Shown here: positions 1-37,683 of the stretch, in pieces
How the letters are laid out: every line of letters begins with the position of its first letter
Numbering within the stretch: the first letter of the stretch is position 1
IMG/VR virus record: IMGVR_UViG_3300029717_000023
Span: 1-37,683 of that record
Source of the DNA: a virus
Strand: one strand, 5' to 3'
DNA: 37,683 bases
Made by a program: the position numbers and the translations under genes
Notes under the pieces: generated by a model
Told to the model about the DNA's origin: nothing
Database searches by the model: none
Seen by the model: only the letters and a program-made list of their open reading frames with translations

Positions 1-99
1 CTTATGGACTGGCCCCTTTCGGCTGTATCTAATATCGCATAATCGGCAGCGAATGCTGCCGGAAAGGAGAACAGCTTGAGCGTACCAACGTGGAAGAGG
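1..99. repeat. Terminal overlap, identical to 37585-37683 (circularisation/assembly overlap)
   Basis: Base-for-base identity read directly. It contains the VR1 3' end, stop codon, hairpin, and the avd SD and start. Confidence 0.9.
44..61 (+). promoter_or_regulatory. Duplicate copy (assembly overlap) of the VR1-proximal hairpin
   Basis: cggcagc-gaat-gctgccg: 7-bp stem with a GAAT loop. Same sequence as 37628-37645. Confidence 0.7.
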
Positions 100-516
100 T
101 CCACTTCATCTGCAGACTATATATACTACTGCTTTGAGCTGAACTGTAAGCTTGGCGAGATAGTAATGAAGAAAGAAACGAAATATAGAAAAACATACGG
201 CGACCATCTGATCAAGACAGGGCTTGAAGCTCTGTCACATCTGCAGGTCGCCAATTCTATATTCATTGGCAAGACCGCAACGGAAGCTGAATTCAGACAA
301 AGACGTGTACATCTCAAAGAAGCCGTAGGACTTCTTGAACATCTGTCAACGACAGCGTACATATTCATCGAGCTTGTCCGTAACAATGGACAGGAGTCAA
401 ACCAGAAGCTCAACAATCAGGAGGAATATATAGGCTCCAAGGTTGAGGCGATAATCAGGAAGACCAAAGGCATAATAAAGAACGATGCGCAAATTTATAA
501 AAAGTATATTAAGTAA
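76..516 (+). CDS. avd: DGR accessory variability determinant (Avd)-like small helical protein
   Basis: 146-aa ORF between the VR1 hairpin and TR. TTG start 4 nt after SD AAAGGAGA (64-71); alternative ATG at 166. Basic and predicted helical, with size and position typical of Avd. No enzymatic motifs. Confidence 0.6.
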   Translation: MSVPTWKRSTSSADYIYYCFELNCKLGEIVMKKETKYRKTYGDHLIKTGLEALSHLQVANSIFIGKTATEAEFRQRRVHLKEAVGLLEHLSTTAYIFIELVRNNGQESNQKLNNQEEYIGSKVEAIIRKTKGIIKNDAQIYKKYIK

Positions 517-542
517 TTAATATAGCGGTTATGTTCTGCTTA

Positions 543-675
543 AGCGCGGCCAACTGGTGGGAGCGTTCTCCTAATTCGAGCAATTCGACTAATTTCTGCA
601 AAGTCAACTCGAACGGCAACGCCAACAACAACAACGCGTCGAACACTAATGGACTGGCCCCTTTCGGATATATCT
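543..675 (+). repeat. DGR template repeat (TR)
   Basis: Aligns without gaps to VR1 (133 nt) and VR2 (128 nt). All 19 and all 22 mismatches are at TR adenines. By my count the TR has 38 adenines and 13 AAY codons in the VR reading frame. Confidence 0.95.
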
Positions 676-713
676 GTTTTGGCAGGAAAAGTAGCGAAAG
701 CGAAATTAAAGCC

Positions 714-1925
714 ATGAAAAATGAAAAGATACAGGAGAACAATAACCGGGGCGAAAGCCGAAATTGCGCCGTAGTCTGCACCTCAGAGGAGACTGCAGCG
801 GCGGGAGCACCGCATACGGCGCCAACAATTAATGACGTTATATCATTTGACAAAATTCTGCAGGCGGGCATAGCCTGCTGCAGGGGGACGCGATGGAAAG
901 CATCAACGCAGATGTTTGAAGTAAACGTGCTGCGATGGGCAGCAAGCCTGTCCCGGGACCTGCAGGAAGAAGAATATGAAAGCAGAGGATTTAACACCTT
1001 TGAGATCAGCGAGCGTGGTAAACGCAGAAAGATCCAGTCGGTGCACATATCAGAGCGAACGGTTCAAAAGTCGCTTTGCAACAATGCCTTGAAGCCGGCA
1101 CTCACACCTAAGATGATATATGACAACTCGGCTACGCTGAAAGGCAAAGGCACAGAGTTCGCTATAGACAGACTGAAAGAGCACCTGCACAGGCATTATA
1201 GAAAACACGGACTAAAGGGTGGAATACTCATTATCGATTTTAAAGGATACTTCCCAAGCATTCCTCACGACAAGCTGATAAAAATGCTGTCTGCAGAAAT
1301 TGAGGACGAAAAAGTAATGAAGCTTGCAGCATACTTTGTAAACTGCTTTGACGGCGACAGAGGCCTTGGCCTTGGCAGTGAGATATCTCAGATATCAGCC
1401 ATATTTTACCCAACGTATAAGCTGGATAAATACATTAAGGAACAGCTGCATATTAAGGGGTATGGACGATATAACGATGACAGCTATCTCATTCATGAAG
1501 ATATTGAACATCTGAAACATTGTCTGCAGGAGATAGATAATCGCTGTCAGGAACTTGGAATAACGCTCAATGCAAAAAGAGTGAAGCTTATAAAGTTCAA
1601 GGACAGACAGGTGTTCACATTCCTTAAGAAAAGATTTCTACTGACTGTTTCAGGCAAGGTCGTGGTCAGGCTGTCGAAGAAGAATATCGTGAACCAGCGG
1701 AGAAGACTGAGAAAGTACAGGAAGCTCCTTGACGCAGGAGAAATAAAGGAAGAATCCATAATCCAGTCGTATGACTGCTGGCGAAGCTACGCGGAGAAAT
1801 ACAATTCCGAAATGACAGCGAGAAATATGGACAGGACATTCAAAGAATTATTCGGAAAAGAAATGCACAGGGAAGTAATGCGAAGAATGGAAAAGAGAAA
1901 AAGGAGGCGGAAAAATGACGGATGA
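714..1925 (+). CDS. DGR-type reverse transcriptase
   Basis: RT motifs: IIDFKGYFPSI, LGLGSEISQ (DGR-like [LI]GxxxSQ), YGRYNDDSYLI (YxDD). The track ORF starts at 531, but its first 61 codons are the TR read in frame. ATG 714 is the first plausible start; its SD is weak, so the start is uncertain. Confidence 0.9.
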   Translation: MKNEKIQENNNRGESRNCAVVCTSEETAAAGAPHTAPTINDVISFDKILQAGIACCRGTRWKASTQMFEVNVLRWAASLSRDLQEEEYESRGFNTFEISERGKRRKIQSVHISERTVQKSLCNNALKPALTPKMIYDNSATLKGKGTEFAIDRLKEHLHRHYRKHGLKGGILIIDFKGYFPSIPHDKLIKMLSAEIEDEKVMKLAAYFVNCFDGDRGLGLGSEISQISAIFYPTYKLDKYIKEQLHIKGYGRYNDDSYLIHEDIEHLKHCLQEIDNRCQELGITLNAKRVKLIKFKDRQVFTFLKKRFLLTVSGKVVVRLSKKNIVNQRRRLRKYRKLLDAGEIKEESIIQSYDCWRSYAEKYNSEMTARNMDRTFKELFGKEMHREVMRRMEKRKRRRKNDG

Positions 1926-2076
1926 ACAAATAACAAAACAGTTCAAAATGCTAGAAGACAAATACAATGACAAATTCAAAAGGATAGACGATGCCTTAAG
2001 ACTTCTAATAGAGGGAAACTCAAACGCCATAGATGATATTGTGGTATCAATGCTGGGAGGTGACGAGATTGTATAA
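1915..2076 (+). CDS. Small hypothetical protein (53 aa), coiled-coil-like
   Basis: ATG 7 nt after SD AAGGAGG (1901-1907). Overlaps the RT stop. Below the track size cut-off. Confidence 0.4.
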   Translation: MTDEQITKQFKMLEDKYNDKFKRIDDALRLLIEGNSNAIDDIVVSMLGGDEIV

Positions 2077-2212
2077 CAGACTGAAAAGATTATACGAAGA
2101 AGGCAGGATTGACTCTAATGGTCTGCAGGTCGCAGTCAATAAGGGGTGGATAACTCCAGAGGAGAAAGATGAGATCGAAAATGGAAACAGTGGCGGCCCT
2201 GATCAGAATTAA
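2069..2212 (+). CDS. XkdX-like small phage protein (47 aa)
   Basis: TTG start 8 nt after GGAGG. Sequence MYNRLKRLYEEGRIDSNGLQVAVNKGWITPEEKDEI matches the remembered XkdX pattern (...V.KGWIT.EE..EI). Confidence 0.55.
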   Translation: MYNRLKRLYEEGRIDSNGLQVAVNKGWITPEEKDEIENGNSGGPDQN

Positions 2213-2331
2213 CCACGAGCTGCTTGATCTTGTCGACAATCTGTACCTGCTGATCCAGGAGCACATATCTGTAGAGCAGGCAATGGATATTGAGGCAAGA
2301 ATTGAAGAAATTAAAGCGAAAGGAGCAGAAA

Positions 2332-3123
2332 ATGATTAAATGCGGATGGGCATCTCAGGATGAGAGAGGCAGAGCCAGCGGCGGCAAGGCCGGCGATCAG
2401 ACCGGCAGAGAAGTAAAGACTGGAAGCTGGTATAACTTCGGACAGAACTGCGTAATCAGATTTAAGAATGAAGACGAGGGCAGAAAATTTGCAAGGGTTA
2501 TAAAGTCATTATGCAATAATGACTGTGTGGGCTATGATCAAAGCCAGCGGACAACTCTATATGAAGAGCTAAAAAAGCAGGCCTTTGATTATACAAAGCT
2601 GAAGACAAAATGCGAAACAGATTGCTCCGCAATGATTGCTGCAGCTCTTGCGTGCATCGGAGTTAAGATATCGAAGAATGCTTGGACGGGAAACCTTGTT
2701 CCTCTGTGCAGAGCAACGGGCAAGTTCACGTTCCATACCGATGCCAAGTATCTTACAACAGACAAGTATCTGAAGACTGGAGACATTATTCTCAACACAG
2801 CAGCGCACGTTATAACAGCCCTTGAAGACGGTGAAGCGGCGAAGAAAAAAACGGTCAAAAAACCGAGAGTAAGTTACACCGGCAAACTCCCAAACCTTCC
2901 ACCGAAAGGATACATACAGAAAGGTGACACCGGGAGTAATGTAAAGCTGCTGCAGAGCTTCTTAAAGTGGTATGGAACATACACAGGAAGCATAGACGGT
3001 TCTGCGGGACCGAAAACCGATACGGCAATCAGAGACTTCCAGCGAGCTGAGAAGATAACTGTAGACGGAAGCTTTGGCAGGAAGTCACTGGCAACAGCAA
3101 AAAAATATAAGGAGTCAAAATGA
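2332..3123 (+). CDS. Endolysin: NlpC/P60-like cysteine peptidase plus PG_binding_1 domain
   Basis: ATG after SD AAGGAG. Has TDCSAMI (Cys) and GDIILNTAAHVITA (His) motifs. C-terminus GDTGSNVKLLQSFL...IDGSAGPKTDTAIRDFQ...VDGSFG matches a peptidoglycan-binding repeat. Confidence 0.8.
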   Translation: MIKCGWASQDERGRASGGKAGDQTGREVKTGSWYNFGQNCVIRFKNEDEGRKFARVIKSLCNNDCVGYDQSQRTTLYEELKKQAFDYTKLKTKCETDCSAMIAAALACIGVKISKNAWTGNLVPLCRATGKFTFHTDAKYLTTDKYLKTGDIILNTAAHVITALEDGEAAKKKTVKKPRVSYTGKLPNLPPKGYIQKGDTGSNVKLLQSFLKWYGTYTGSIDGSAGPKTDTAIRDFQRAEKITVDGSFGRKSLATAKKYKESK

Positions 3124-3380
3124 AAAAAGAATTTTCACAGCTACTCGTCGCCTTGGTCGTAGCATTTGCTTGCCTATGTGTCATCGCATATTATGTAGCC
3201 GTATTTGCGGGCAAGGAATGCGACAGCGCCATAGGCGTAACGGCACTTGGAACGATTGTAGGAGGTGTGCTGTCGTATCTGCTCTATCAGTTAGGCCTGA
3301 AGAACAGTCGTAATAGGTATGGAATAGACGCAGACGGACAGCCGTATAAAACAAAAATTGAGGAGGAAGAAGATGATTGA
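3120..3380 (+). CDS. Holin-like membrane protein (two TM segments, acidic C-terminus)
   Basis: 86 aa. Hydrophobic stretches LLVALVVAFACLCVIAYYVAVF and ALGTIVGGVLSYLLY. ATGA overlap with the endolysin stop. Confidence 0.5.
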   Translation: MKKEFSQLLVALVVAFACLCVIAYYVAVFAGKECDSAIGVTALGTIVGGVLSYLLYQLGLKNSRNRYGIDADGQPYKTKIEEEEDD

Positions 3381-3693
3381 CTGGACAGAAGTAATAATCG
3401 GGATCTGCAGTATAGTAATCACGGGAATAATGATCCCGCTGATTAATGCGAAAAGGAAGGAAGTAAAAAACAGGCTGACAGACGACCAGCTCGAAGCAGT
3501 AGAATACTGGACAGAAGTCGGAGTGCGCTGGGCTAAGCAGTGGCTCTGGTCAGAATCAGGCCAGAAGAAGAAAGCCGAGGTTACAGACTTCCTCAATAAG
3601 AAGCTAGCAGAGCTGAACCTCAATATGACAGCAGAGGACATAGACAAAATAATAGAAGCTATATATGAGAGAGTGAAAGCAGAGAGTGAATAA
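3373..3693 (+). CDS. Holin, LL-H-family-like
   Basis: ATG after SD GGAGGA. N-terminal TM segment (VIIGICSIVITGIMIPLI) followed by a helical soluble tail, as in LL-H holins. Confidence 0.55.
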   Translation: MIDWTEVIIGICSIVITGIMIPLINAKRKEVKNRLTDDQLEAVEYWTEVGVRWAKQWLWSESGQKKKAEVTDFLNKKLAELNLNMTAEDIDKIIEAIYERVKAESE

Positions 3694-3995
3694 TGGAAAC
3701 AGTAAGCACAATATTAAGCTTCATCGTTCTTCTGGGAGCTGCAGCGGCGGTAATCTTCAAGCTGATTAAGCCAACAGTGGACATCAGAAAAATGGTGAAA
3801 GACCACGATGACAGATTGAAACGGATTGAGCGCCACGAAAAGAATGACCTGCAGGCGCTGGACCACATACAGTACCTGCAGAAAAAGCAGATGCAGATGA
3901 TGGTTGCGCTGCTCAATCATTCAATCGACGGAAACGGAATCGCCCAGATGAAAGCAACAAGAGATGAGATAATAGATCTCATAGCAGAAGAATAG
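3693..3995 (+). CDS. Membrane-anchored coiled-coil protein, lysis-associated by position
   Basis: N-terminal TM segment (ILSFIVLLGAAAAVIF) plus a helical region. Start overlaps the upstream stop (TAATG). Confidence 0.4.
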   Translation: METVSTILSFIVLLGAAAAVIFKLIKPTVDIRKMVKDHDDRLKRIERHEKNDLQALDHIQYLQKKQMQMMVALLNHSIDGNGIAQMKATRDEIIDLIAEE

Positions 3996-4021
3996 AATAA
4001 CAAGATATATATTGACACATA

Positions 4022-4057
4022 GCCCTCTGATTGCGATGCATGACGAGGGCCTTTTTT
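4022..4057 (+). terminator. Rho-independent terminator closing the lysis operon
   Basis: gccctc (4022-4027) pairs with gagggc (4045-4050), followed by cTTTTTT. Confidence 0.6.
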
Positions 4058-4118
4058 AATATTATGCGATAAACACATAATATTGAGATGTGATATAGAA
4101 ATATACTAGATATAGTTG

Positions 4119-4147
4119 TTGACATGTATGATAAAATATAAATAAAA
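4119..4147 (+). promoter_or_regulatory. Candidate promoter of the AT-rich island
   Basis: TTGACA at 4119-4124 with A/T-rich -10-like hexamers about 16-18 nt downstream. The exact -10 is ambiguous. Confidence 0.3.
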
Positions 4148-4174
4148 TAGTTATTTAAATGAATGAGGTATATT

Positions 4175-4594
4175 ATGGCAAAAATTAAAAACTTTATATA
4201 TTGCTTGAATGCAACTTCGGACGATAAAATAGCCAATGCAATGGGTATTCTCTTAACAATTAACCCCGATTATATGCCGGGAAATTTTTCGTTTAGTATA
4301 TTTTTCACAATCGTTGACATTAAAGAAGACTTGCATAATCTTAAGATTGAATTTTTAGACCCAGATGGAGAAGAAGTAATTCCTGCGTTAAAGGGAGAGA
4401 TTCCATATAAGAAGAAAGAAGAAGATAATGAGCTCGATAGCGATTATTCAGGAGTGAATATATCTGCTAATCTGCAAAACGTGAATTTAAAGAAAAACGG
4501 AAAGTATAAAACCGTAATCACATTTGATGGAGCGAAACTAAATGAGTACGAAATACTTGTAAAAGGGAAGAAAATTTTGAAAGAAGATGAATAA
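4175..4594 (+). CDS. Hypothetical protein A of the accessory island (139 aa, probably all-beta)
   Basis: ATG 6 nt after GAGG. AT-rich codon usage. No TM segment and no motif I recognise. Confidence 0.6.
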   Translation: MAKIKNFIYCLNATSDDKIANAMGILLTINPDYMPGNFSFSIFFTIVDIKEDLHNLKIEFLDPDGEEVIPALKGEIPYKKKEEDNELDSDYSGVNISANLQNVNLKKNGKYKTVITFDGAKLNEYEILVKGKKILKEDE

Positions 4595-4596
4595 AT

Positions 4597-5166
4597 ATGA
4601 ATAAACAATTATGCATACATAGAAGTCCTCATATGAATTTTTCTTACGACTTATCTAAGTCTGTTGACAATCCTAGCACTAATGTAAATAAAATTAATTA
4701 TGGAAATGGAATAAATAGCGCAATGCCTAAATATAATAATTATAGCATAGGTAAAAATGATATGTTTGTTAGGTGGCGTTATGATGAATCAAAAGGAGTT
4801 AGCTGCATGGAGATGAATGCTAGGAGCAGCAATTTAAAAAAACTCTTTGAGATAAGCAAATTAGAAGAAGACTGGAATGGTTATAGTGCAAAGAAAATTT
4901 CTAATAGGATTATAGAACTTGCGAAGAGCATACTAGATATAGTTGAGCAACAACCAGAGATTTACCCGACAGGAAGAGGCACTATTAATATGCAGTATGA
5001 GTTGAAAGATAAAAGCTATCTTGAGTTTGAGCTTTTTGATAATAGGATTGAATGCTTAAAAGTGCCCAAAAGAGAGTATTCAAAAGCTGTTACAGAGTCT
5101 ATAAATGAAGAAAATATTGTTCGTGTGAGTAAAATTTTAAAGGAATTTTGTGCTAATAATGATTGA
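4597..5166 (+). CDS. Hypothetical protein B of the accessory island (189 aa, or 119 aa from ATG 4807)
   Basis: ORF starts 2 nt after the stop of A. The N-terminal 70 aa are N-rich and low-complexity. In-frame ATG 4807 has a strong SD AAAGGAG (4792-4798). The C-terminal half contains LEEDWNGYSAKKI.... Confidence 0.55.
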   Translation: MNKQLCIHRSPHMNFSYDLSKSVDNPSTNVNKINYGNGINSAMPKYNNYSIGKNDMFVRWRYDESKGVSCMEMNARSSNLKKLFEISKLEEDWNGYSAKKISNRIIELAKSILDIVEQQPEIYPTGRGTINMQYELKDKSYLEFELFDNRIECLKVPKREYSKAVTESINEENIVRVSKILKEFCANND

Positions 5167-9250: not shown

Positions 9251-9445
9251 ATGAAATTCGGCGAAAACCTGAAAAGGGTACGGAATGAGAAAGGTTTTAC
9301 TTTGAAGCAGCTCAGCTTCCGTACAGGGATTGACGCCTCACAGCTCTCACGATATGAGAGCGGAGGCGCTCTCCCATCAATAGAAACTGCAGCCAAAATC
9401 GCAATCGGGCTAGGAACAACGCTTGATGTGATGACGAAGGAATAA
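9251..9445 (+). CDS. Second XRE-family HTH protein (64 aa)
   Basis: NLKRVRNEKGFTLKQLSFRTGIDASQLSRYESG is an HTH_3 pattern. SD AGGAGGG. Confidence 0.7.
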   Translation: MKFGENLKRVRNEKGFTLKQLSFRTGIDASQLSRYESGGALPSIETAAKIAIGLGTTLDVMTKE

Positions 9446-15635: not shown

Positions 15636-15757
15636 ATAAAGAAACCAAGATTAGTATAATAGTTGGATGCATTGCGGCATCGGCTTTAGATAACGGAATA
15701 AAGGCAGAACTTATAGATTTTATGTGGGAGCTTGAAGAGGCAGGTGAGCAGGAATGA
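15632..15757 (+). CDS. Small hypothetical protein (41 aa) ending in junction-repeat copy 1
   Basis: ATGA overlaps at both ends. C-terminus ...EEAGEQE is encoded by the repeat. Confidence 0.3.
   Translation: MNKETKISIIVGCIAASALDNGIKAELIDFMWELEEAGEQE
15738..15757 (+). repeat. Gene-junction repeat copy 1 (AGGCAGGTGAGCAGGAATGA)
   Basis: 20-nt unit containing SD AGGTGA, a 6-nt spacer and an overlapping ATG/TGA. The next gene starts at 15754. Confidence 0.85.
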
Positions 15758-15996
15758 AAACAATTAGAAAAAAGATTTTGCCAATATATTTTGAAGCTGT
15801 GGAAAGCAGACAGAAAAATTTTGAAATCAGAAAAGACGATGATGATGTGCAGGTGGGCGATAAGTTAGTTTTAGTAGAATGGAACGAAGAACAGCAACAC
15901 TACACTGGAAGATTCGCCACAAGAAAAGTGAAGTATGTTTTGCGTAATGTGCCTGAATATGGGTTGAATGAAGGCTATTGCATTATTGGTTGGTAA
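15754..15996 (+). CDS. DUF3850-like ASCH/PUA-fold protein
   Basis: KILPIYFEAVESRQKNFEIRKDDDDVQVGDKLVLVEW....TGR.....VKYVL fits the remembered DUF3850 pattern. Confidence 0.55.
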   Translation: MKTIRKKILPIYFEAVESRQKNFEIRKDDDDVQVGDKLVLVEWNEEQQHYTGRFATRKVKYVLRNVPEYGLNEGYCIIGW

Positions 15997-16016
15997 AGGC
16001 AGGTGAGCAGGAATGA
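15997..16016 (+). repeat. Gene-junction repeat copy 2
   Basis: Exact copy of AGGCAGGTGAGCAGGAATGA. The next gene starts at 16013. Confidence 0.85.
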
Positions 16017-16375
16017 ATCGTAAAACCATTAAAAAAGCCGAACGAGAAAGAGTTTATCTAAAATACAACGGACACTGTGTTTACTGTGGCAAGGAGATTG
16101 CGTACAAGGATATGCAGGTAGACCACCTGATGCCATTAGAGGGGTACTGCGAAAAAGGCACGAATGATTTTGACAACTTAATGCCTGCTTGCAGGCGATG
16201 CAATCACTATAAGCGGGCGAATAGTTTAGAGGGCTGGCGAAAGATGATTGAGCAAATACCTGAGAAATTGGAGCGGGACAGCTATATTTACAGAGTGGCA
16301 TTAGATTATGGGATAATCAATCCAAATCCACATAAAATTAAATTTTATTTTGAAAAGGTAAGTGAGCAGGAATGA
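16013..16375 (+). CDS. HNH endonuclease
   Basis: CVYCGKEI...VDHLMPLE...NDFDNLMPACRRCNHYK. Confidence 0.8.
   Translation: MNRKTIKKAERERVYLKYNGHCVYCGKEIAYKDMQVDHLMPLEGYCEKGTNDFDNLMPACRRCNHYKRANSLEGWRKMIEQIPEKLERDSYIYRVALDYGIINPNPHKIKFYFEKVSEQE
16356..16375 (+). repeat. Gene-junction repeat copy 3 (2 mismatches)
   Basis: AGGTAAGTGAGCAGGAATGA. The next gene starts at 16372. Confidence 0.8.
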
Positions 16376-16848
16376 AAATTTTAGATGCCTGTTGCGGAAG
16401 TAGAATGTTTTGGTTTGACAAGAACAATCCCTTGGTGACCTTTATGGATAATCGGGAGATTGAAGATGCTTTGTGTGACGGCCGAAGCCTGAGAGTAAAA
16501 CCTGATGTCTTGGGAGATTTCAGAAGAATTCCGTATGACAGCGGAACATTTGACATTGTAGTCTTTGATCCGCCACATTTGCTAAAAGTCGGAGAAAAAT
16601 CGTGGCTTGCTAAAAAGTATGGCAAGCTTAATCAGTCAACATGGAAAGACGATTTAAAGCAGGGCTTTTCAGAGTGCTTCAGAGTTTTAAAGCTGAATGG
16701 AATACTGGTGTTTAAATGGAATGAGACTGATATTCCCGTTTCTGAGATTTTAAAACTTACTGAACAAAGCCCATTAATAGGACACAAAAGTGGAAAACTT
16801 AATAAGACACATTGGATATTGTTTTTTAAGGCAGGTGAGCAGGAATGA
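16372..16848 (+). CDS. SAM-dependent methyltransferase, probably a DNA methyltransferase
   Basis: Motif I-like ILDACCGS and motif IV-like VVFDPPHL. Small phage-type enzyme. The target base is unknown. Confidence 0.6.
   Translation: MKILDACCGSRMFWFDKNNPLVTFMDNREIEDALCDGRSLRVKPDVLGDFRRIPYDSGTFDIVVFDPPHLLKVGEKSWLAKKYGKLNQSTWKDDLKQGFSECFRVLKLNGILVFKWNETDIPVSEILKLTEQSPLIGHKSGKLNKTHWILFFKAGEQE
16829..16848 (+). repeat. Gene-junction repeat copy 4
   Basis: Exact copy. It starts a 23-codon ORF at 16845-16916. Confidence 0.85.
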
Positions 16849-16973
16849 ATTATAACGACTATGCAAAGCTGAGAGAGCGCGCAATAAGAAAGGTGGGCAA
16901 TCAGAATGTTCTATAACGAAGCTATGACACTAATAGGACGAAGCTATAAACCTATGGAACAGGAGAGCGGGTA

Positions 16974-17147
16974 ATGAAGATGAACAAGAAAGAAGCAATG
17001 GACAAGCTGTACGAGCATAAAAATATGCTTACGTATCAGCAGTACAGGACATTCAGAGGTCAGATATGCTCAGGAGATATAGTAGGATTTCACAAGGGTT
17101 TAGATAGGATATTGAAAAGAAAAGGAGAAGTAAAATGTCAGAGATAA
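16974..17147 (+). CDS. Small hypothetical protein (57 aa)
   Basis: ATG 7 nt after AGGAGA. Overlaps the DGR target 2 start by 13 nt. Below the track cut-off. Confidence 0.3.
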   Translation: MKMNKKEAMDKLYEHKNMLTYQQYRTFRGQICSGDIVGFHKGLDRILKRKGEVKCQR

Positions 17148-17962
17148 AGATAGGAACAATCAATATTATTTTTAACGGCAATATGAATAGCGCGCAGGAA
17201 ATGATACCGGCAGCGGAGCGTTGTGAGAACAGCCCAGCTAAAGCGCCGGTGAAAATTGTAACATGGGCAGACGGAACAGACGAAGAAATAGTTGCAATGG
17301 TTAAGGCAGCAGACAAGGGACTGATCGATTTGAAAGATTACTGGAATATTGGAGATGCAAGAAAGGTTATGCTGTCTGAGACAGAAGGCTGCGAATGGTA
17401 TACGTCCCACAGCAGACAGGAGACTGAATTCGTATTGATGAACGCTGGCGGGAAGATGTTGCTAACACCTACCGAGTCAGGCAGGACAACCTGTAGCTTT
17501 GTGGTTGGGTTGAAAGATTGTCTCAAAGAAGAGGACAAAATCAACAGAGAAGATACAAATGAAGGCGGCTGGGAAAGTTCAGATATAAGGGAATGGTGCA
17601 ATGACTGGTTTGCACAGTCAATTCCCCAGACCCTGCAGCCGATATTCAAAAACTTTGTAAACAGTACATATGCAGACGGGAAGATTGTTGAAACGACAGA
17701 CCTGTTTGCGCTTCCGGCAGAGGTTGAGGTGTACGGAAGCACCAAATACTCTGCACAGGGAGAAGGCACACAATTTGAGCTTTATAAAAATCCGCTTAAC
17801 AGAATTAAGTGTATAGGCTCCGGAGGATATCAGGCCCACTGGTGGGAGCGTTCTCCTTGTTCGAGCAGTTCGGCTGGTTTCTGCATAGTCGACTCGGACG
17901 GCGACGCCGACGTCAGCAGCGCGTCGGTCACTTTTGGACTGGCCCCTTTCGGCTGTATCTAA
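17135..17962 (+). CDS. DGR target protein 2 (C-type-lectin-like variable domain only, 275 aa)
   Basis: Paralogous to residues ~185-421 of target 1 (KIVTWA.GTD.EI..MV.AADKGLI.L.DYW..GD...). C-terminus carries VR2 (HWWERSP...GLAPFGCI*). SD AAGGAG. Confidence 0.85.
   Translation: MSEIKIGTINIIFNGNMNSAQEMIPAAERCENSPAKAPVKIVTWADGTDEEIVAMVKAADKGLIDLKDYWNIGDARKVMLSETEGCEWYTSHSRQETEFVLMNAGGKMLLTPTESGRTTCSFVVGLKDCLKEEDKINREDTNEGGWESSDIREWCNDWFAQSIPQTLQPIFKNFVNSTYADGKIVETTDLFALPAEVEVYGSTKYSAQGEGTQFELYKNPLNRIKCIGSGGYQAHWWERSPCSSSSAGFCIVDSDGDADVSSASVTFGLAPFGCI
17833..17960 (+). repeat. DGR variable repeat 2 (VR2)
   Basis: 128 nt align gap-free to TR 548-675. All 22 mismatches are at TR adenines. Confidence 0.95.
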
Positions 17963-17973
17963 TATCAATTAAT

Positions 17974-17991
17974 CAGCAGCGAATGCTGCAG
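17974..17991 (+). promoter_or_regulatory. VR2-proximal hairpin (GAAT loop), DGR target-recognition element candidate
   Basis: gcagc-gaat-gctgc core, plus an outer c-g pair across an a/a mismatch. Begins 13 nt after VR2, the same offset as at VR1. Confidence 0.6.
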
Positions 17992-18005: not shown

Positions 18006-18266
18006 ATGGAAAAATTAAAAGTAGGATCATCAACGAAACCCAACCTGGCTGCAGGAGCGATTGCAGGAATCATAAGAAGAGATAAAAAAATAGAGATTCA
18101 GGCTATAGGAGCGGGAGCAGTTAATCAGTCAATTAAGGCGGTAGCTATAGCAAGAGGCTATGTAGCTGCCGGTGGACTGGATATAATCTGCAGACCTGCA
18201 TTTATAGATATCGACACGGGCGATAAGGAAACCACAGCTATAAGAATAATAGTCGAGGCAATTTGA
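18006..18266 (+). CDS. spoVS: SpoVS-like protein (stage V sporulation protein S homologue)
   Basis: MEKLKVGSSTKPNLAAGAIAGIIR....EIQAIGAGAVNQSIKAVAIARGYVA..G.D.IC.PAF.DI......TAIR.IVE closely follows the SpoVS sequence as I recall it. Confidence 0.8.
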   Translation: MEKLKVGSSTKPNLAAGAIAGIIRRDKKIEIQAIGAGAVNQSIKAVAIARGYVAAGGLDIICRPAFIDIDTGDKETTAIRIIVEAI

Positions 18267-20256: not shown

Positions 20257-20580
20257 ATGGCAAAAGACTTTTCGAAGAAATTCTACAACTCAAAAGAATG
20301 GCAAGCAGCGAGAGCCGCATACATAGCAGAACGCATAGGCATTGACGGCGGACTGTGTGAACGATGTCACAAGGAGCTCGGCAAGATAGTTCACCACAAG
20401 GTGATACTCAATGCTATAAACATTAACGATGCTGACATAACGCTCAACAAGTGCAGGCTTGAGTACCTGTGCAAAGACTGTCACGACGAGGAACACTACA
20501 AGGATATGTTTGGCAGGGAGCGGAAACCGTCAAGATGCTTTTTCGACAAGCGCGGCAATCCTGTTATAAAAAACGAATAG
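20257..20580 (+). CDS. Packaging-associated HNH endonuclease
   Basis: CERCHKE...VHHKV...N....LCKDCHDEEH. Located immediately upstream of terS/terL. Confidence 0.8.
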   Translation: MAKDFSKKFYNSKEWQAARAAYIAERIGIDGGLCERCHKELGKIVHHKVILNAININDADITLNKCRLEYLCKDCHDEEHYKDMFGRERKPSRCFFDKRGNPVIKNE

Positions 20581-34675: not shown

Positions 34676-35206
34676 ATGGAAACGACAGATAAGTACGGAT
34701 TAAGGCTTCCGGCGGGCAATGAGAACGCAGACGTGGAAGATCTGAATTATAACGCTCAAAAAATAGACGCACTGCTAAGGGAAGCAATAATTAAAGACGC
34801 AGATGCTTCTAACACGATAGCACAGACTGACTATTTTGGGTTGGTGAAATCGGATAACAGCTTCAAGAAAGTAGCCTTTTCCAAAATCGTAGAGAAAGCA
34901 AAAGAAACGATGGGCGGGGTAAACACTAAGACTGTTAGGGCGTCAAACATTGCAGTGCCATTGTCAGCATGGAGTCAGGAATCAAGCCCAACTGTTGCAG
35001 ATTATCCATGGAAGGCAGAGATAACTGTGAGTGGAATTGATTCCACATATAAACCGAATAATCTAGTGTCATTAACCGAGGGATTTATGGATTTACTGTA
35101 CGAATTCGCGAACACATCAACGAACAAATTAATACTCTACGCATCGGAAAAACCTGCAACAGCGGTAACAATTGACAGCGTAGATTTCACAAAGGTGGTG
35201 ACATAA
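34676..35206 (+). CDS. Tail fibre protein (N-terminal fibre-anchor pattern)
   Basis: METTDKYGLRLPAGNENADVEDLNYNAQKID resembles the N-termini of Xkd-type fibre proteins. Confidence 0.45.
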   Translation: METTDKYGLRLPAGNENADVEDLNYNAQKIDALLREAIIKDADASNTIAQTDYFGLVKSDNSFKKVAFSKIVEKAKETMGGVNTKTVRASNIAVPLSAWSQESSPTVADYPWKAEITVSGIDSTYKPNNLVSLTEGFMDLLYEFANTSTNKLILYASEKPATAVTIDSVDFTKVVT

Positions 35207-36060
35207 TGCTGGGAAGAGTAAAAAGCGCTAAACCTGAAGAAGAAATAACGGTAACGGCCGGGACAGAAACAAAAGAAGTACTGCCCTCATCGGGGAAGAC
35301 AATCAAGAAGGCGACAGTAAATCCTACCCCAAGCCAGGCGAAGACCATTATCCCATCCGAAGTACAGCAGGAAGTGGCGCCAGACGATGGAAGCTTATTA
35401 AGCAAGGTGATTGTGACAGGGGATCCCAACCTCACGGAAGAAAACATTAAAAAAGGCGTTAGTATCTTCGGCAGGGAGGGGACTTACTCAGGACCACCAG
35501 CCATGTTTTATTTAGACGATTACGAAAACCCCACAGAAATTACCTTCACCGGTGAGTCTATACCGAACAGAATGTTTTACATAAACAACCTTATGAGAAC
35601 AATAGACTCATTTCGGACTCATAAGAAGATTAAGACAATTGGAGAGGAAGCGTTCAGTTCGGTGTACTATCCCATGTACACATACCCGCTAAAAAATGTT
35701 TTCCCTGACGTTTTGGAGGCCGACAACATAAAAGGTGGAGCCTTTTATTACTTTTTCTACAACTACGCACCAGCAAAAATAAAAATACATAAGACAATTG
35801 CGGGGTGCCCATTCAGTAGGTGCTTTGGGTATTTTTTTAACGGCAGCAGCAAGCTGTGGCTTTCGGCACAAATCAAAACAATAAGCCAGGGCATTGTGGA
35901 TCCGCAGGATTCATCGTGCGCATTGACTATTTACTGTGAAGCAGCAGAAAAGCCAAGTGGGTGGGCTAGTAATTGGAACCAGTGGAATTACCCTAGCAGT
36001 ACAATAAACACGGTAACGACGATGTGGGGCGTAGATGAAGAGCAATTCAATAATCTGTAG
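35206..36060 (+). CDS. Fibre-module protein with a BspA-like leucine-rich-repeat character
   Basis: Repeated I(K/G)xxAF-type segments (IKTIGEEAFSS, IKGGAFYY, IKTISQGI) and a C-terminal ...IYCEA..KPSGWASNWN. Confidence 0.35.
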   Translation: MLGRVKSAKPEEEITVTAGTETKEVLPSSGKTIKKATVNPTPSQAKTIIPSEVQQEVAPDDGSLLSKVIVTGDPNLTEENIKKGVSIFGREGTYSGPPAMFYLDDYENPTEITFTGESIPNRMFYINNLMRTIDSFRTHKKIKTIGEEAFSSVYYPMYTYPLKNVFPDVLEADNIKGGAFYYFFYNYAPAKIKIHKTIAGCPFSRCFGYFFNGSSKLWLSAQIKTISQGIVDPQDSSCALTIYCEAAEKPSGWASNWNQWNYPSSTINTVTTMWGVDEEQFNNL

Positions 36061-36070
36061 GAGGTAAGAA

Positions 36071-36274
36071 GTGAAAAAAGAATACACAAAACATACGATT
36101 GAGAAAATGGATGAAAATATGCAGCCGACAGGCGAAAAGGAAGAAAAAATTTTTGTTAGCCTTATAGCTGATGAAGGGAAGAGAATAAGAGAAAAAGGCA
36201 CAGGCATACTGGGCACAAGAGTTGATATCGGAGATGGAAGCTCTGAAGATGATTTTGAAGAAGTGGCGGTTTAA
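36071..36274 (+). CDS. Small acidic hypothetical protein
   Basis: GTG start after TAGGAGGTAAGAA. 67 aa. Confidence 0.35.
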   Translation: MKKEYTKHTIEKMDENMQPTGEKEEKIFVSLIADEGKRIREKGTGILGTRVDIGDGSSEDDFEEVAV

Positions 36275-36289
36275 TGATAGGAGAATAAA

Positions 36290-36349
36290 ATGAAAATACG
36301 CAAAAATCTAGGGGGGGGGCGGCCCTTAATCGCTCTCCGGAGGTGCTAG
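36290..36349 (+). CDS. 19-codon upstream ORF containing the G9 tract
   Basis: ATG 5-6 nt after TAGGAGA. Ends (tag) 1 nt before the target 1 ATG. Translation is speculative. Confidence 0.2.
   Translation: MKIRKNLGGGRPLIALRRC
36311..36319 (+). repeat. Homopolymeric G9 tract
   Basis: ctaGGGGGGGGGcggccc, read directly. Lies 32 nt upstream of the DGR target 1 start. Confidence 0.9.
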
Positions 36350-36350
36350 A

Positions 36351-37616
36351 ATGTGGGGACAAATAAAAAAGAGAAGCGGCGGCATCAAGTCAATTCCAAC
36401 AGGTATCTATGTCGCCACAGCACCGAACAAGACATCATATAAGGCAGGGGAGACGCTTGCAATAGCTGGAATGGTGGTTAAAGTCAAGTTCTCAGATAAC
36501 ACTGAAAAAGACATAACATCTGAGTGTACGCTTTCACCTGCCGCAGGAACAGTCATATATGAGAATACAACCAAAATAGATATAAGCTGGGAGTGGAATG
36601 AGCTGGGAGCTGCAATTGCATATTCAGCTGAACAGCCTGTAACAGTTCAGAGAGTGTTAAGCTCAATCGCCGTTACAACGCAACCAACCAAAACTACATA
36701 TTATAAAAATGAAACTCTTAACCTTGCCGGAATGGTGGTTAAGGGAACGTTTAATTCGGGGACGACTGCAGTTGTTACAGGCTGGACAACCAGTCCTGCA
36801 AACGGAGTAGCGCTGTCTATACTCGGCACTCAAACAGTGACAGTATCATACACCGAGAATGGAGTGACAAAGACAGCGACATTCACAGTACAGGTAAATG
36901 TGAAGATTGTAACCTGGGCTGCCGGCACGGATGCAGAGATCGCCTCAATGGTAGAGGCTGCGGACAAAGGATTGATTACCCTGTCAGACTATTGGACAGT
37001 GGGAGATGAACGGTCTGTGAGCCTGTCTGCTATGGCAGCCACAGGAGTAGGCGAAAGCCACGCGGCACAGACCGCGAAGTTCGTGCTAATGAACGCCGGC
37101 GGAAAGGACCTCGTGACAGCGACTGAGTCAGGCAGAACAATCTGCAGCTTCGTGGTGGGATTGAAAGACTGCCTGAATGAAGCGGGATACATGAATTCGT
37201 CAAATACCAACGCAAATGGTTGGGACGGCTGCGCAAGAAGAACGTGGTGTAACGGCATTTTCAGAAACGCCATTCCGTCAGCGCTGAGAGGAATATTCAA
37301 GCAGCATAAGAATAAGGCTTCTGCAGGAAGCGGTAGCTCAGCAATAAATACATCTAACGACTATTTCGCACTGCCGGCAGAAATTGAAGTGTTTGGAACC
37401 AGGAGTTACTCAGCCTCGGGCGAAGGTTCGCAGTTCAAATACTATGAGACAGCATCGAACAGAATTAAGAATGTTAATGGTAGCGCGGCCAACTGGTGGG
37501 AGCGTTCTCCTTATTCGAGCAGTTCGACTAATTTCTGCGGAGTCTTCTCGAACGGCTTCGCCGACCTCTACTCCGCGTCGCACGCTTATGGACTGGCCCC
37601 TTTCGGCTGTATCTAA
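36351..37616 (+). CDS. DGR target protein 1: two Ig-like repeats plus a C-type-lectin-like variable domain
   Basis: Two ~90-aa repeats (..T.Y..GETL..AGMVVK..F.....) at about 36390-36900. Then a domain paralogous to target 2, ending in VR1 (NWWERSP...GLAPFGCI*). Last gene of the fibre module. Confidence 0.9.
   Translation: MWGQIKKRSGGIKSIPTGIYVATAPNKTSYKAGETLAIAGMVVKVKFSDNTEKDITSECTLSPAAGTVIYENTTKIDISWEWNELGAAIAYSAEQPVTVQRVLSSIAVTTQPTKTTYYKNETLNLAGMVVKGTFNSGTTAVVTGWTTSPANGVALSILGTQTVTVSYTENGVTKTATFTVQVNVKIVTWAAGTDAEIASMVEAADKGLITLSDYWTVGDERSVSLSAMAATGVGESHAAQTAKFVLMNAGGKDLVTATESGRTICSFVVGLKDCLNEAGYMNSSNTNANGWDGCARRTWCNGIFRNAIPSALRGIFKQHKNKASAGSGSSAINTSNDYFALPAEIEVFGTRSYSASGEGSQFKYYETASNRIKNVNGSAANWWERSPYSSSSTNFCGVFSNGFADLYSASHAYGLAPFGCI
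37482..37614 (+). repeat. DGR variable repeat 1 (VR1)
   Basis: 133 nt align gap-free to TR 543-675. All 19 mismatches are at TR adenines. Confidence 0.95.
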
Positions 37617-37627
37617 TATCGCATAAT

Positions 37628-37645
37628 CGGCAGCGAATGCTGCCG
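37628..37645 (+). promoter_or_regulatory. VR1-proximal hairpin (GAAT loop), DGR target-recognition element candidate
   Basis: cggcagc-gaat-gctgccg: perfect 7-bp stem. Begins 13 nt after VR1. Absent downstream of TR. Confidence 0.65.
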
Positions 37646-37683
37646 GAAAGGAGAACAGCTTGAGCGTACCAACGTGGAAGAGG

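Follow-up and report, generated by a model that had tools for sequence, protein, structure and literature searches.

A probably active diversity-generating retroelement with two targets in a temperate phage from the human gut

We analysed a 37,683-nucleotide (nt) stretch of viral DNA, IMG/VR record IMGVR_UViG_3300029717_000023, which is called the window below. The original prediction, made from the sequence alone, had seen in it a diversity-generating retroelement (DGR) split across the two ends. We conclude that the window very probably carries a complete and recently active DGR, with a core of architecture 'B1' (accessory gene avd, template repeat (TR) and reverse transcriptase (RT)), in a temperate, contractile-tailed phage of gut Clostridia of about 37.6 kb. 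A single TR appears to serve two variable repeats (VRs), each at the 3' end of its own target gene. If so, an uncultured temperate phage of the human gut provides a clean example from nature of an active DGR with two targets. Its parts are as follows; IMH stands for initiation of mutagenic homology and IMH* for its counterpart at the TR.

543-675, plus strand: TR, with 38 adenines and, in the VR frame, 13 AAY codons and one AAA codon; 651-675 is IMH*.
37482-37614, plus strand: VR1; 37482-37589 is the mutagenised part, and the final 25 nt already belong to the IMH.
17833-17960, plus strand: VR2, within the open reading frame (ORF) 17135-17962.
714-1925, plus strand: DGR reverse transcriptase, 403 amino acids (aa), with LGLGSEISQ (motif 4) and RYNDD (motif 5).
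76-516, plus strand: Avd-like accessory gene, 146 aa, with a TTG start and an AAGGAG ribosome-binding site (RBS); isoelectric point (pI) 9.43; predicted four-helix bundle.
36351-37616, plus strand: target gene 1, 421 aa, with N-terminal Ig-like Big_3 (PF07523, 1.5e-10) and C-terminal DUF6273 containing VR1 (PF19789, 1.9e-14).
17135-17962, plus strand: target gene 2, 275 aa, a stand-alone DUF6273 protein (PF19789, 2.7e-12) with VR2 at the 3' end of the gene.
37590-37620, plus strand: IMH at VR1, GGACTGGCCCCTTTCGGCTGTATCTAATATC, 31 nt, identical at VR2.
37628-37645 (= 44-61), plus strand: GC-rich hairpin after VR1, CGGCAGC-GAAT-GCTGCCG, with a 7-bp stem and a GAAT loop.
17936-17989, plus strand: IMH (17936-17966) and hairpin (17976-17989; 5-bp stem, GAAT loop) at VR2.
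1-99, no strand assigned: terminal duplicate, identical to 37585-37683; an overlap left by the assembly of a circular or terminally redundant genome.

Template, variable repeats and their adenine-restricted differences

An ungapped scan of both strands of the window found exactly two other TR-like copies, VR1 and VR2. VR1 differs from the TR at 19 positions and all 19 are TR adenines (hypergeometric p = 7e-13), and the same is true of all 22 mismatches in VR2 (p = 3e-15). The raw scan also returned four non-adenine mismatches for VR2; these all fall in its first five bases, outside the VR2 homology, which starts at 17833. The homology between the TR and VR1 possibly begins one base earlier, at 542. 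Mismatches at non-adenine positions, which had been named in advance as an outcome that would speak against a DGR, were absent from the homologous part, and the differences between the TR and its VRs are confined to TR adenines, as in a DGR.

As predicted, the TR holds 38 adenines, of which 36 lie in the mutagenised stretch, and its 13 AAY codons give a theoretical repertoire of 15^13 = 1.9e15. The further claim that mutagenesis cannot create stop codons holds for the AAY codons and fails for TR codon 20, which is AAA and can mutate to a stop; the third A of this codon was unchanged in all eight complete VR alleles.

Our evidence for activity comes from public assemblies, obtained by pattern searches of IMG/VR and metagenome contigs and compared assembly to assembly, which approximates the polymorphism check that the original prediction had called for. 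Six further copies of the TR (one partial), from other human-gut assemblies, were identical to that of the window, giving seven identical copies in total. The nine VR alleles that we recovered (four of VR1 and five of VR2; one partial) all differed from each other, and 153 of their 153 mismatches to the TR fell on TR adenines. Of the 38 adenines, 32 were substituted in one or more of the nine alleles. Two differences, the 3'-most (GGA to GGC and TAT to TGT), were identical in 9 of 9 alleles, so we read them as fixed differences between IMH and IMH* and not as mutagenesis. Closely related genomes therefore carry an invariant TR alongside varying VRs, as a DGR would.

The terminal overlap through which the element is joined is exact, spans 99 bp (1-99 = 37585-37683) and is the longest that exists. 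It reaches from the 3' end of VR1 across the IMH and hairpin into the start of avd, and end-joining leaves a unique genome of 37,584 bp. Three independent contigs (L001 and L002 from IMG/VR, and L021 from a human-gut assembly) run unbroken over the junction, from target 1 through VR1, the hairpin, avd and the TR to the RT, indicating that joining the ends is correct. The order that had been proposed for the closed sequence is therefore real, and the ORFs at 76-516, 714-1925 and 36351-37616 exist as described. All parts also stand in the predicted order of Bordetella phage BPP-1, namely target with VR, IMH, hairpin, accessory gene, TR and RT. The warning that a linear annotation could miss the element needs a correction: both TR/VR pairs are still found in the linear window, and it is the adjacency of target 1 and avd that is split.

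The sequences that surround the repeats fit the same picture. The TR departs from the IMH GGACTGGCCCCTTTCGGCTGTATCTAATATC after its GC-rich core. No GC hairpin was found 3' of the TR in the window, and in eight related DGRs a GC hairpin follows every VR and never the TR, with a stem sequence that differs between elements. At the level of sequence and predicted structure, the window therefore has an IMH at each VR, a divergent IMH* at the TR and a hairpin after the VRs only. The hairpins next to the VRs match what would be expected of the target-recognition hairpin of BPP-1, which is summarised in PMC5758913.

By analogy with BPP-1, the RT and the basic helical-bundle accessory protein would jointly bind a transcript that covers the TR and spacer. 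The TR would be reverse-transcribed faithfully, except that random nucleotides would be placed opposite adenines, and the cDNA would replace the homologous VR where the shared IMH and the downstream GC hairpin mark a recipient. The TR itself, which has IMH* and lacks the hairpin, would be protected. The recipients would be VR1, at the 3' end of the Ig-domain/DUF6273 gene that closes the baseplate/tail-fibre module, and VR2, which ends the gene of the stand-alone DUF6273 paralogue at a distance of 17-20 kb.

Some details of the substitutions deserve mention. The TR adenines at 562, 579 and 602 remained unsubstituted in every VR allele that covers them, though they lie within the mutagenised stretch; they belong to GAG in WWERSP, to AGC in SS and to the third base of the AAA codon, respectively. 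Across the VR alleles, A-to-C substitutions were four times rarer than A-to-T or A-to-G (15 versus 60 and 60). These patterns suggest purifying selection, a sequence-context bias of the RT, or both. In addition, the VR1 alleles of L001 and L002 (around 9270-9290) are longer by an NNC codon inside the (AAC)4 run that corresponds to TR 624-635. The TR of each of these contigs has four AAC codons and their VR2 is of normal length. The same extra codon was seen in 4 of 57 target-2 alleles (P0159, P0161, P0189 and P0209). It would fit a 3-nt template slippage by the RT, and three-base slippage in AAC repeats has already been proposed (PMC12875486).

Target proteins and the possible uses of their diversification

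Target 1 has a GGAGG RBS 8 nt upstream of its start, and its gene lies shortly downstream of the Baseplate J and Mu-gp48-like genes, which bears out the proposal that the DGR sits at the end of the tail-fibre module. Target 2 is a paralogue of the C-terminal part of target 1. Its gene is about 17-20 kb from the DGR core, among early/moron genes and not tail genes, flanked by genes for a DNA methyltransferase and SpoVS.

A protein search found 57 target-2 protein alleles at 79-100% identity, most of them in singleton 90% clusters. In their alignment, 15 columns exceeded 1.5 bits, and 14 of them coincide exactly with the TR's 13 AAY codons and its one AAA codon (residues 235, 242, 245, 248, 251, 253, 255, 257, 259-262, 265 and 267). 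Mean entropy was 1.01 bits in the VR versus 0.23 bits elsewhere. One invariant template, together with the dozens of VR alleles in public data, could be used to benchmark DGR finders and to study mutational spectrum and selection.

The AlphaFold2 (AF2) model of target 2 has a predicted local distance difference test score (pLDDT) of 87 and is confident from residue 40 on, after a disordered N-terminus of 35 residues. Its structural neighbours in BFVD are many phage DUF6273 proteins, including some that are named tail-collar fibre and receptor-binding protein. Its sole clear match in the PDB is the DUF6273 N-terminal domain of an IgA peptidase. DUF6273 has already been described and modelled as a C-type-lectin-like DGR target (PMC10743442, PMC11792537). 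The 14 randomised codons (13 AAY and one AAA) would vary a surface of a lectin-like ligand-binding domain. From position and type of domain, it is plausible that the two targets diversify receptor binding.

A different use has a real but minority chance. The diversified proteins may not be receptor-binding tail fibres at all. On this reading, target 1 would bind mucus or glycans as a Hoc-like adhesin with Ig domains, target 2 would be an early/moron protein outside the virion, and diversification would serve environmental adherence or a function in the lysogen rather than host-range switching. Target 1 has Big_3 Ig-like domains, a weak Hoc-like PHROG match and no recognisable tail-attachment domain, and the real fibre could be encoded by the two unannotated ORFs that separate the baseplate genes from target 1 (34676-36060). 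The place of target 2, between the methyltransferase and the SpoVS moron and far from the tail genes, also suits such a role, and the role of paired DUF6273 targets has been termed unclear (PMC11792537). However, target 1 stands where Roseburia phage Shimadzu has its tail-fibre target, the structural neighbours of the target-2 model include the named tail-collar fibre and receptor-binding proteins, and target 2 has neither a signal peptide nor a membrane anchor.

We give distinctly lower odds to a more specific proposal, taken as a whole, in which target 2 would be a non-virion diversified binding protein, expressed early or in the lysogen and acting on or in the host cell, and the avd-TR-RT block would move between phages as a recombination module together with an RNA motif in its spacer.

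A run of nine G residues (36311-36319) lies in the short gap before target 1 (36290-36367), inside a 25-codon ORF with a strong RBS. We considered whether this run might give target 1 a phase-variable start and rejected the idea, because an in-frame TAA at 36327-36329 prevents it from extending target 1 upstream. The run could be error-prone in sequencing or prone to slippage.

Activity, reverse transcriptase and accessory protein

If the cassette were a fossil, the VR alleles would be old standing variation in diverged phages and the element would no longer diversify. This is a very improbable explanation. It can draw on the fact that the compared genomes are not clonal, with flanks that are only 88-92% identical. 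The window and L001, L002 and L021 share target 1 (36351-37584) at that level, and the ORFs just upstream of target 1 (35001-36300; putative fibre) and, within the compared stretch 1926-5000, the genes beyond about 4000 are essentially non-homologous. The avd-TR-RT block (1-1925), in contrast, shows 4-6 differences in 1,925 nt between genomes, and its identity between the window and the same three contigs is 99.7-100%. The compared genomes are mosaic around a near-invariant DGR core, and against a fossil stands the 99-100% identity of TR, avd and RT across genomes whose nine VRs all differ. Moreover, no ORF is disrupted, the catalytic motifs have been retained, two contigs of one sample carry different VR1 and VR2 alleles, and target 2 falls into dozens of 90%-identity clusters that differ mainly in the VR. 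These differences between assemblies argue for recent activity of the DGR.

The predicted RT motifs LGxxxSQ and YNDD are present in the translation as LGLGSEISQ and RYNDD, and relatives of this RT carry YMDD or YNDD. The protein matches RVT_1 in Pfam and the phage RT family phrog_1423 (3e-72). Its best solved relative in the PDB is 8ub7_A (E = 2.6e-11), in which the aligned sequence is that of the BPP-1 RT, Brt. The group II intron RT GsI-IIC gave E = 0.09, and retron RTs were not among the PDB matches at E <= 10, so that an RT from outside the DGR group, the other outcome named beforehand as contrary, is not indicated by these comparisons. The nearest phage RTs sit in described DGRs or DGR-type cassettes, for example those of Shimadzu and of Faecalibacterium phages. 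With [I/L/V]GxxxSQ and YxDD motifs and an adjoining TR, the protein can be assigned to the DGR RTs on sequence grounds.

We also weighed whether the RT belongs to another retroelement or a defence system (group II intron, retron or DRT/Abi), with the three repeats being ordinary paralogous gene ends. The best NCBIfam model is group_II_RT_mat (TIGR04416), at 73 bits versus a curated cut-off of 300, and there are weak matches to retron_St85 (36 bits versus 235), Drt3a and generic RT models. The PADLOC retron and UG models gave at most 43 bits, scores against DRT and Abi models were likewise weak, and a control with BPP-1 Brt returned the same weak profile. Rfam found neither a group II intron RNA nor a retron RNA in the window, and the matches of plasmid ltrA genes to the RT were no better than E = 4e-6 and covered 30-59% of the protein. 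The protein therefore shows neither the passing TIGR04416 score and flanking intron RNA domains of a group II intron RT/maturase nor the passing model score and cognate non-coding RNA of a retron or defence RT. As a non-coding TR copy with adenine-only differences (p about 1e-13) would also be left unexplained, this origin can practically be dismissed.

We accept the product of 76-516 as a DGR accessory protein because of its predicted fold, charge, position and homology to an Avd of the same clade. Its AF2 model is a four-helix bundle (pLDDT 86). Its pI of 9.43 is close to the 9.55 of the BPP-1 Avd (bAvd) and to the 9.5 +/- 0.7 reported in a survey of 372 DGRs, which also found Avd proteins to be very poorly conserved (PMC5758913). 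A profile of the accessory family aligns end to end with the annotated Avd of Shimadzu (hhalign, 96% probability, E = 4e-9). The homologues of the protein that turned up in metagenome-assembled genomes (MAGs) of Eubacterium, Clostridia and Bacillota were distant ones. All five genomic loci from these MAGs that were retrieved with the accessory protein alone have the accessory gene placed between a DUF6273 target with VR and a TR and RT, with adenine-biased mismatches. An Avd is typically a small, basic four-helix bundle that forms a pentamer and binds the RT; of these traits, the size, charge and predicted fold are seen here. The label 'avd-like' therefore stands as regards fold, charge, position and homology to the Shimadzu protein, and does not extend to sequence similarity to bAvd. 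Current Avd models in Pfam and NCBIfam do not pick up the accessory protein of this clade, and about 208 clusters at 50% identity, most without annotation, could be labelled from it.

Several points weigh against a complete, active element of the BPP-1 kind. The accessory ORF had no match in Pfam (including PF05635 and PF22296), NCBIfam, PHROGs, PADLOC or a phmmer search of the PDB, and neither a 48-sequence accessory profile searched against the PDB nor hhalign against bAvd recovered BPP-1 Avd, so homology to bAvd is unproven. The best PDB fold neighbours of the accessory model, 2gsc and 2rld (Foldseek; target-normalised template modelling score 0.7-0.8), are generic-looking helical bundles with weak E values of 0.08-0.2; both belong to the 23S-rRNA-IVS/S23 bundle family, to which Avd was first likened. 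With the target-2 model as query, Foldseek found neither Mtd nor TvpA nor any other C-type-lectin DGR target in the PDB. Finally, the case for activity is built on differences between assemblies and not on reads within a sample.

The ATG at 714 is the sole canonical start between the TR and the conserved RT core, and leaves a TR-RT spacer of 38 nt compared with about 80-340 nt in relatives. The TR is also in frame with the RT ORF without an intervening stop (531-1925, a 464-aa ORF). We considered whether the TR is translated as part of this longer ORF and rejected the idea; since the read-through is not conserved in seven relatives, it is probably due to chance. The spacer carries one further feature:

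690-706, plus strand: spacer motif, AGTA-(short stem-loop)-GAAAT, 15-31 nt 3' of the TR.

This motif was kept in seven of eight relatives, whose RTs are 38-56% identical. Its stems vary in length and sequence (GC/GC, GGCC/GGCC, AGCGC/GCGCT and GA/TC). In a hand-specified 2-bp core helix, 15 of 16 cells were paired, with compensatory changes in both pairs, which gives modest covariation support. RNAalifold returned no consensus structure for the motif, and it is absent from the BPP-1 spacer. We tentatively regard it as a candidate DGR-RNA element.

Known relatives and the phage genome

The BPP-1 DGR (mtd-avd-TR-brt) shares with the window its gene order and orientation, the VR at the 3' end of the target, a TR of about 134 nt in which AAY codons dominate, adenine-only differences, IMH and IMH*, a GC hairpin with a 4-nt loop after the VR, and a small basic accessory protein (pI 9.4 here and 9.55 there). 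In contrast, the window RT is 24% identical to Brt and 75 aa longer, and no similarity between the accessory protein and bAvd could be detected. The targets are DUF6273 proteins and by sequence not of the Mtd fold family, there are two of them instead of one, and the TR-RT spacer has 38 nt instead of 144 nt. The window phage is also myovirus-like and of a Gram-positive anaerobe-type host lineage.

Roseburia phage Shimadzu (LR596903) is a closer relative. Its RT was the best match among 50,697 phage records, at 40.7% identity, and its genes follow the order Baseplate J, P2-I/Mu-gp48-like, target (annotated as a tail fibre), Avd, TR, RT, endolysin and integrase. Its target ends in DUF6273 and its Avd is homologous to the accessory protein at profile level; two diversified proteins have been reported for this phage (PMC11792537). 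However, it has no nucleotide-level similarity to the window, its target begins with a tail-collar fibre domain where target 1 has Ig-like Big_3, and its RT has YMDD where the window has YNDD.

Sharing one DGR between two targets also has precedents. In Faecalibacterium phages Lelie/CP11 and in phages nd4/nd12, one DGR serves a large Ig-containing DUF6273 target and a small DUF6273-only target (PMC11792537, PMC10743442), as in the window. Their RTs are about 30-38% identical to that of the window, and the small target of the window differs from theirs in lying in the early/moron region next to SpoVS. In the 'tentaclins' of this group, the VR and DUF6273 lie at the N-terminus; the window has both VRs at the C-terminus. 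DGR targets that are not adjacent within a prophage are common (PMC5758913). The two-target architecture has therefore already been described in gut Firmicutes phages, and the present element leaves the current understanding of DGRs unchanged.

The remaining genes include those for TerL, portal, major capsid protein, tail sheath, tape measure, Baseplate J and a Mu-gp48/P2-I-like protein, followed by the two unannotated ORFs, target 1 with the DGR, and an endolysin. A tyrosine integrase and a repressor are encoded on the minus strand. The structural genes, together with the integrase and repressor, indicate a temperate, contractile-tailed (myovirus-like) phage. Searches of INPHARED phages at the nucleotide level gave no match beyond short TR-like stretches, and Rfam and tRNA scans of the window found nothing.

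Directly 3' of target 2, at 18006-18266, is a homologue of SpoVS (stage V sporulation protein S; Pfam 2.4e-32), and target 2 and SpoVS are also neighbours in a related integrated prophage, found on the 355-kb contig L027 (ERZ28761834 contig_1576). This conserved synteny, together with the MAG hosts of relatives, points to spore-forming gut Clostridia as the host. A search for the exact IMH pattern in GTDB species genomes gave no host match.

Two HNH endonuclease genes were also found, one at 16013-16375 adjoining the DNA methyltransferase gene and one at 20257-20580 just upstream of the terminase genes. The latter arrangement is typical of HNH-assisted cos packaging. Lastly, a repeat of about 35 nt, AAGGCAGGTGAGCAGGAATGAA, occurs at the starts of four consecutive small genes of one family (D3) at 15730-16855. 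It is possibly a common RBS/start-region motif, or a regulatory or recombination element.

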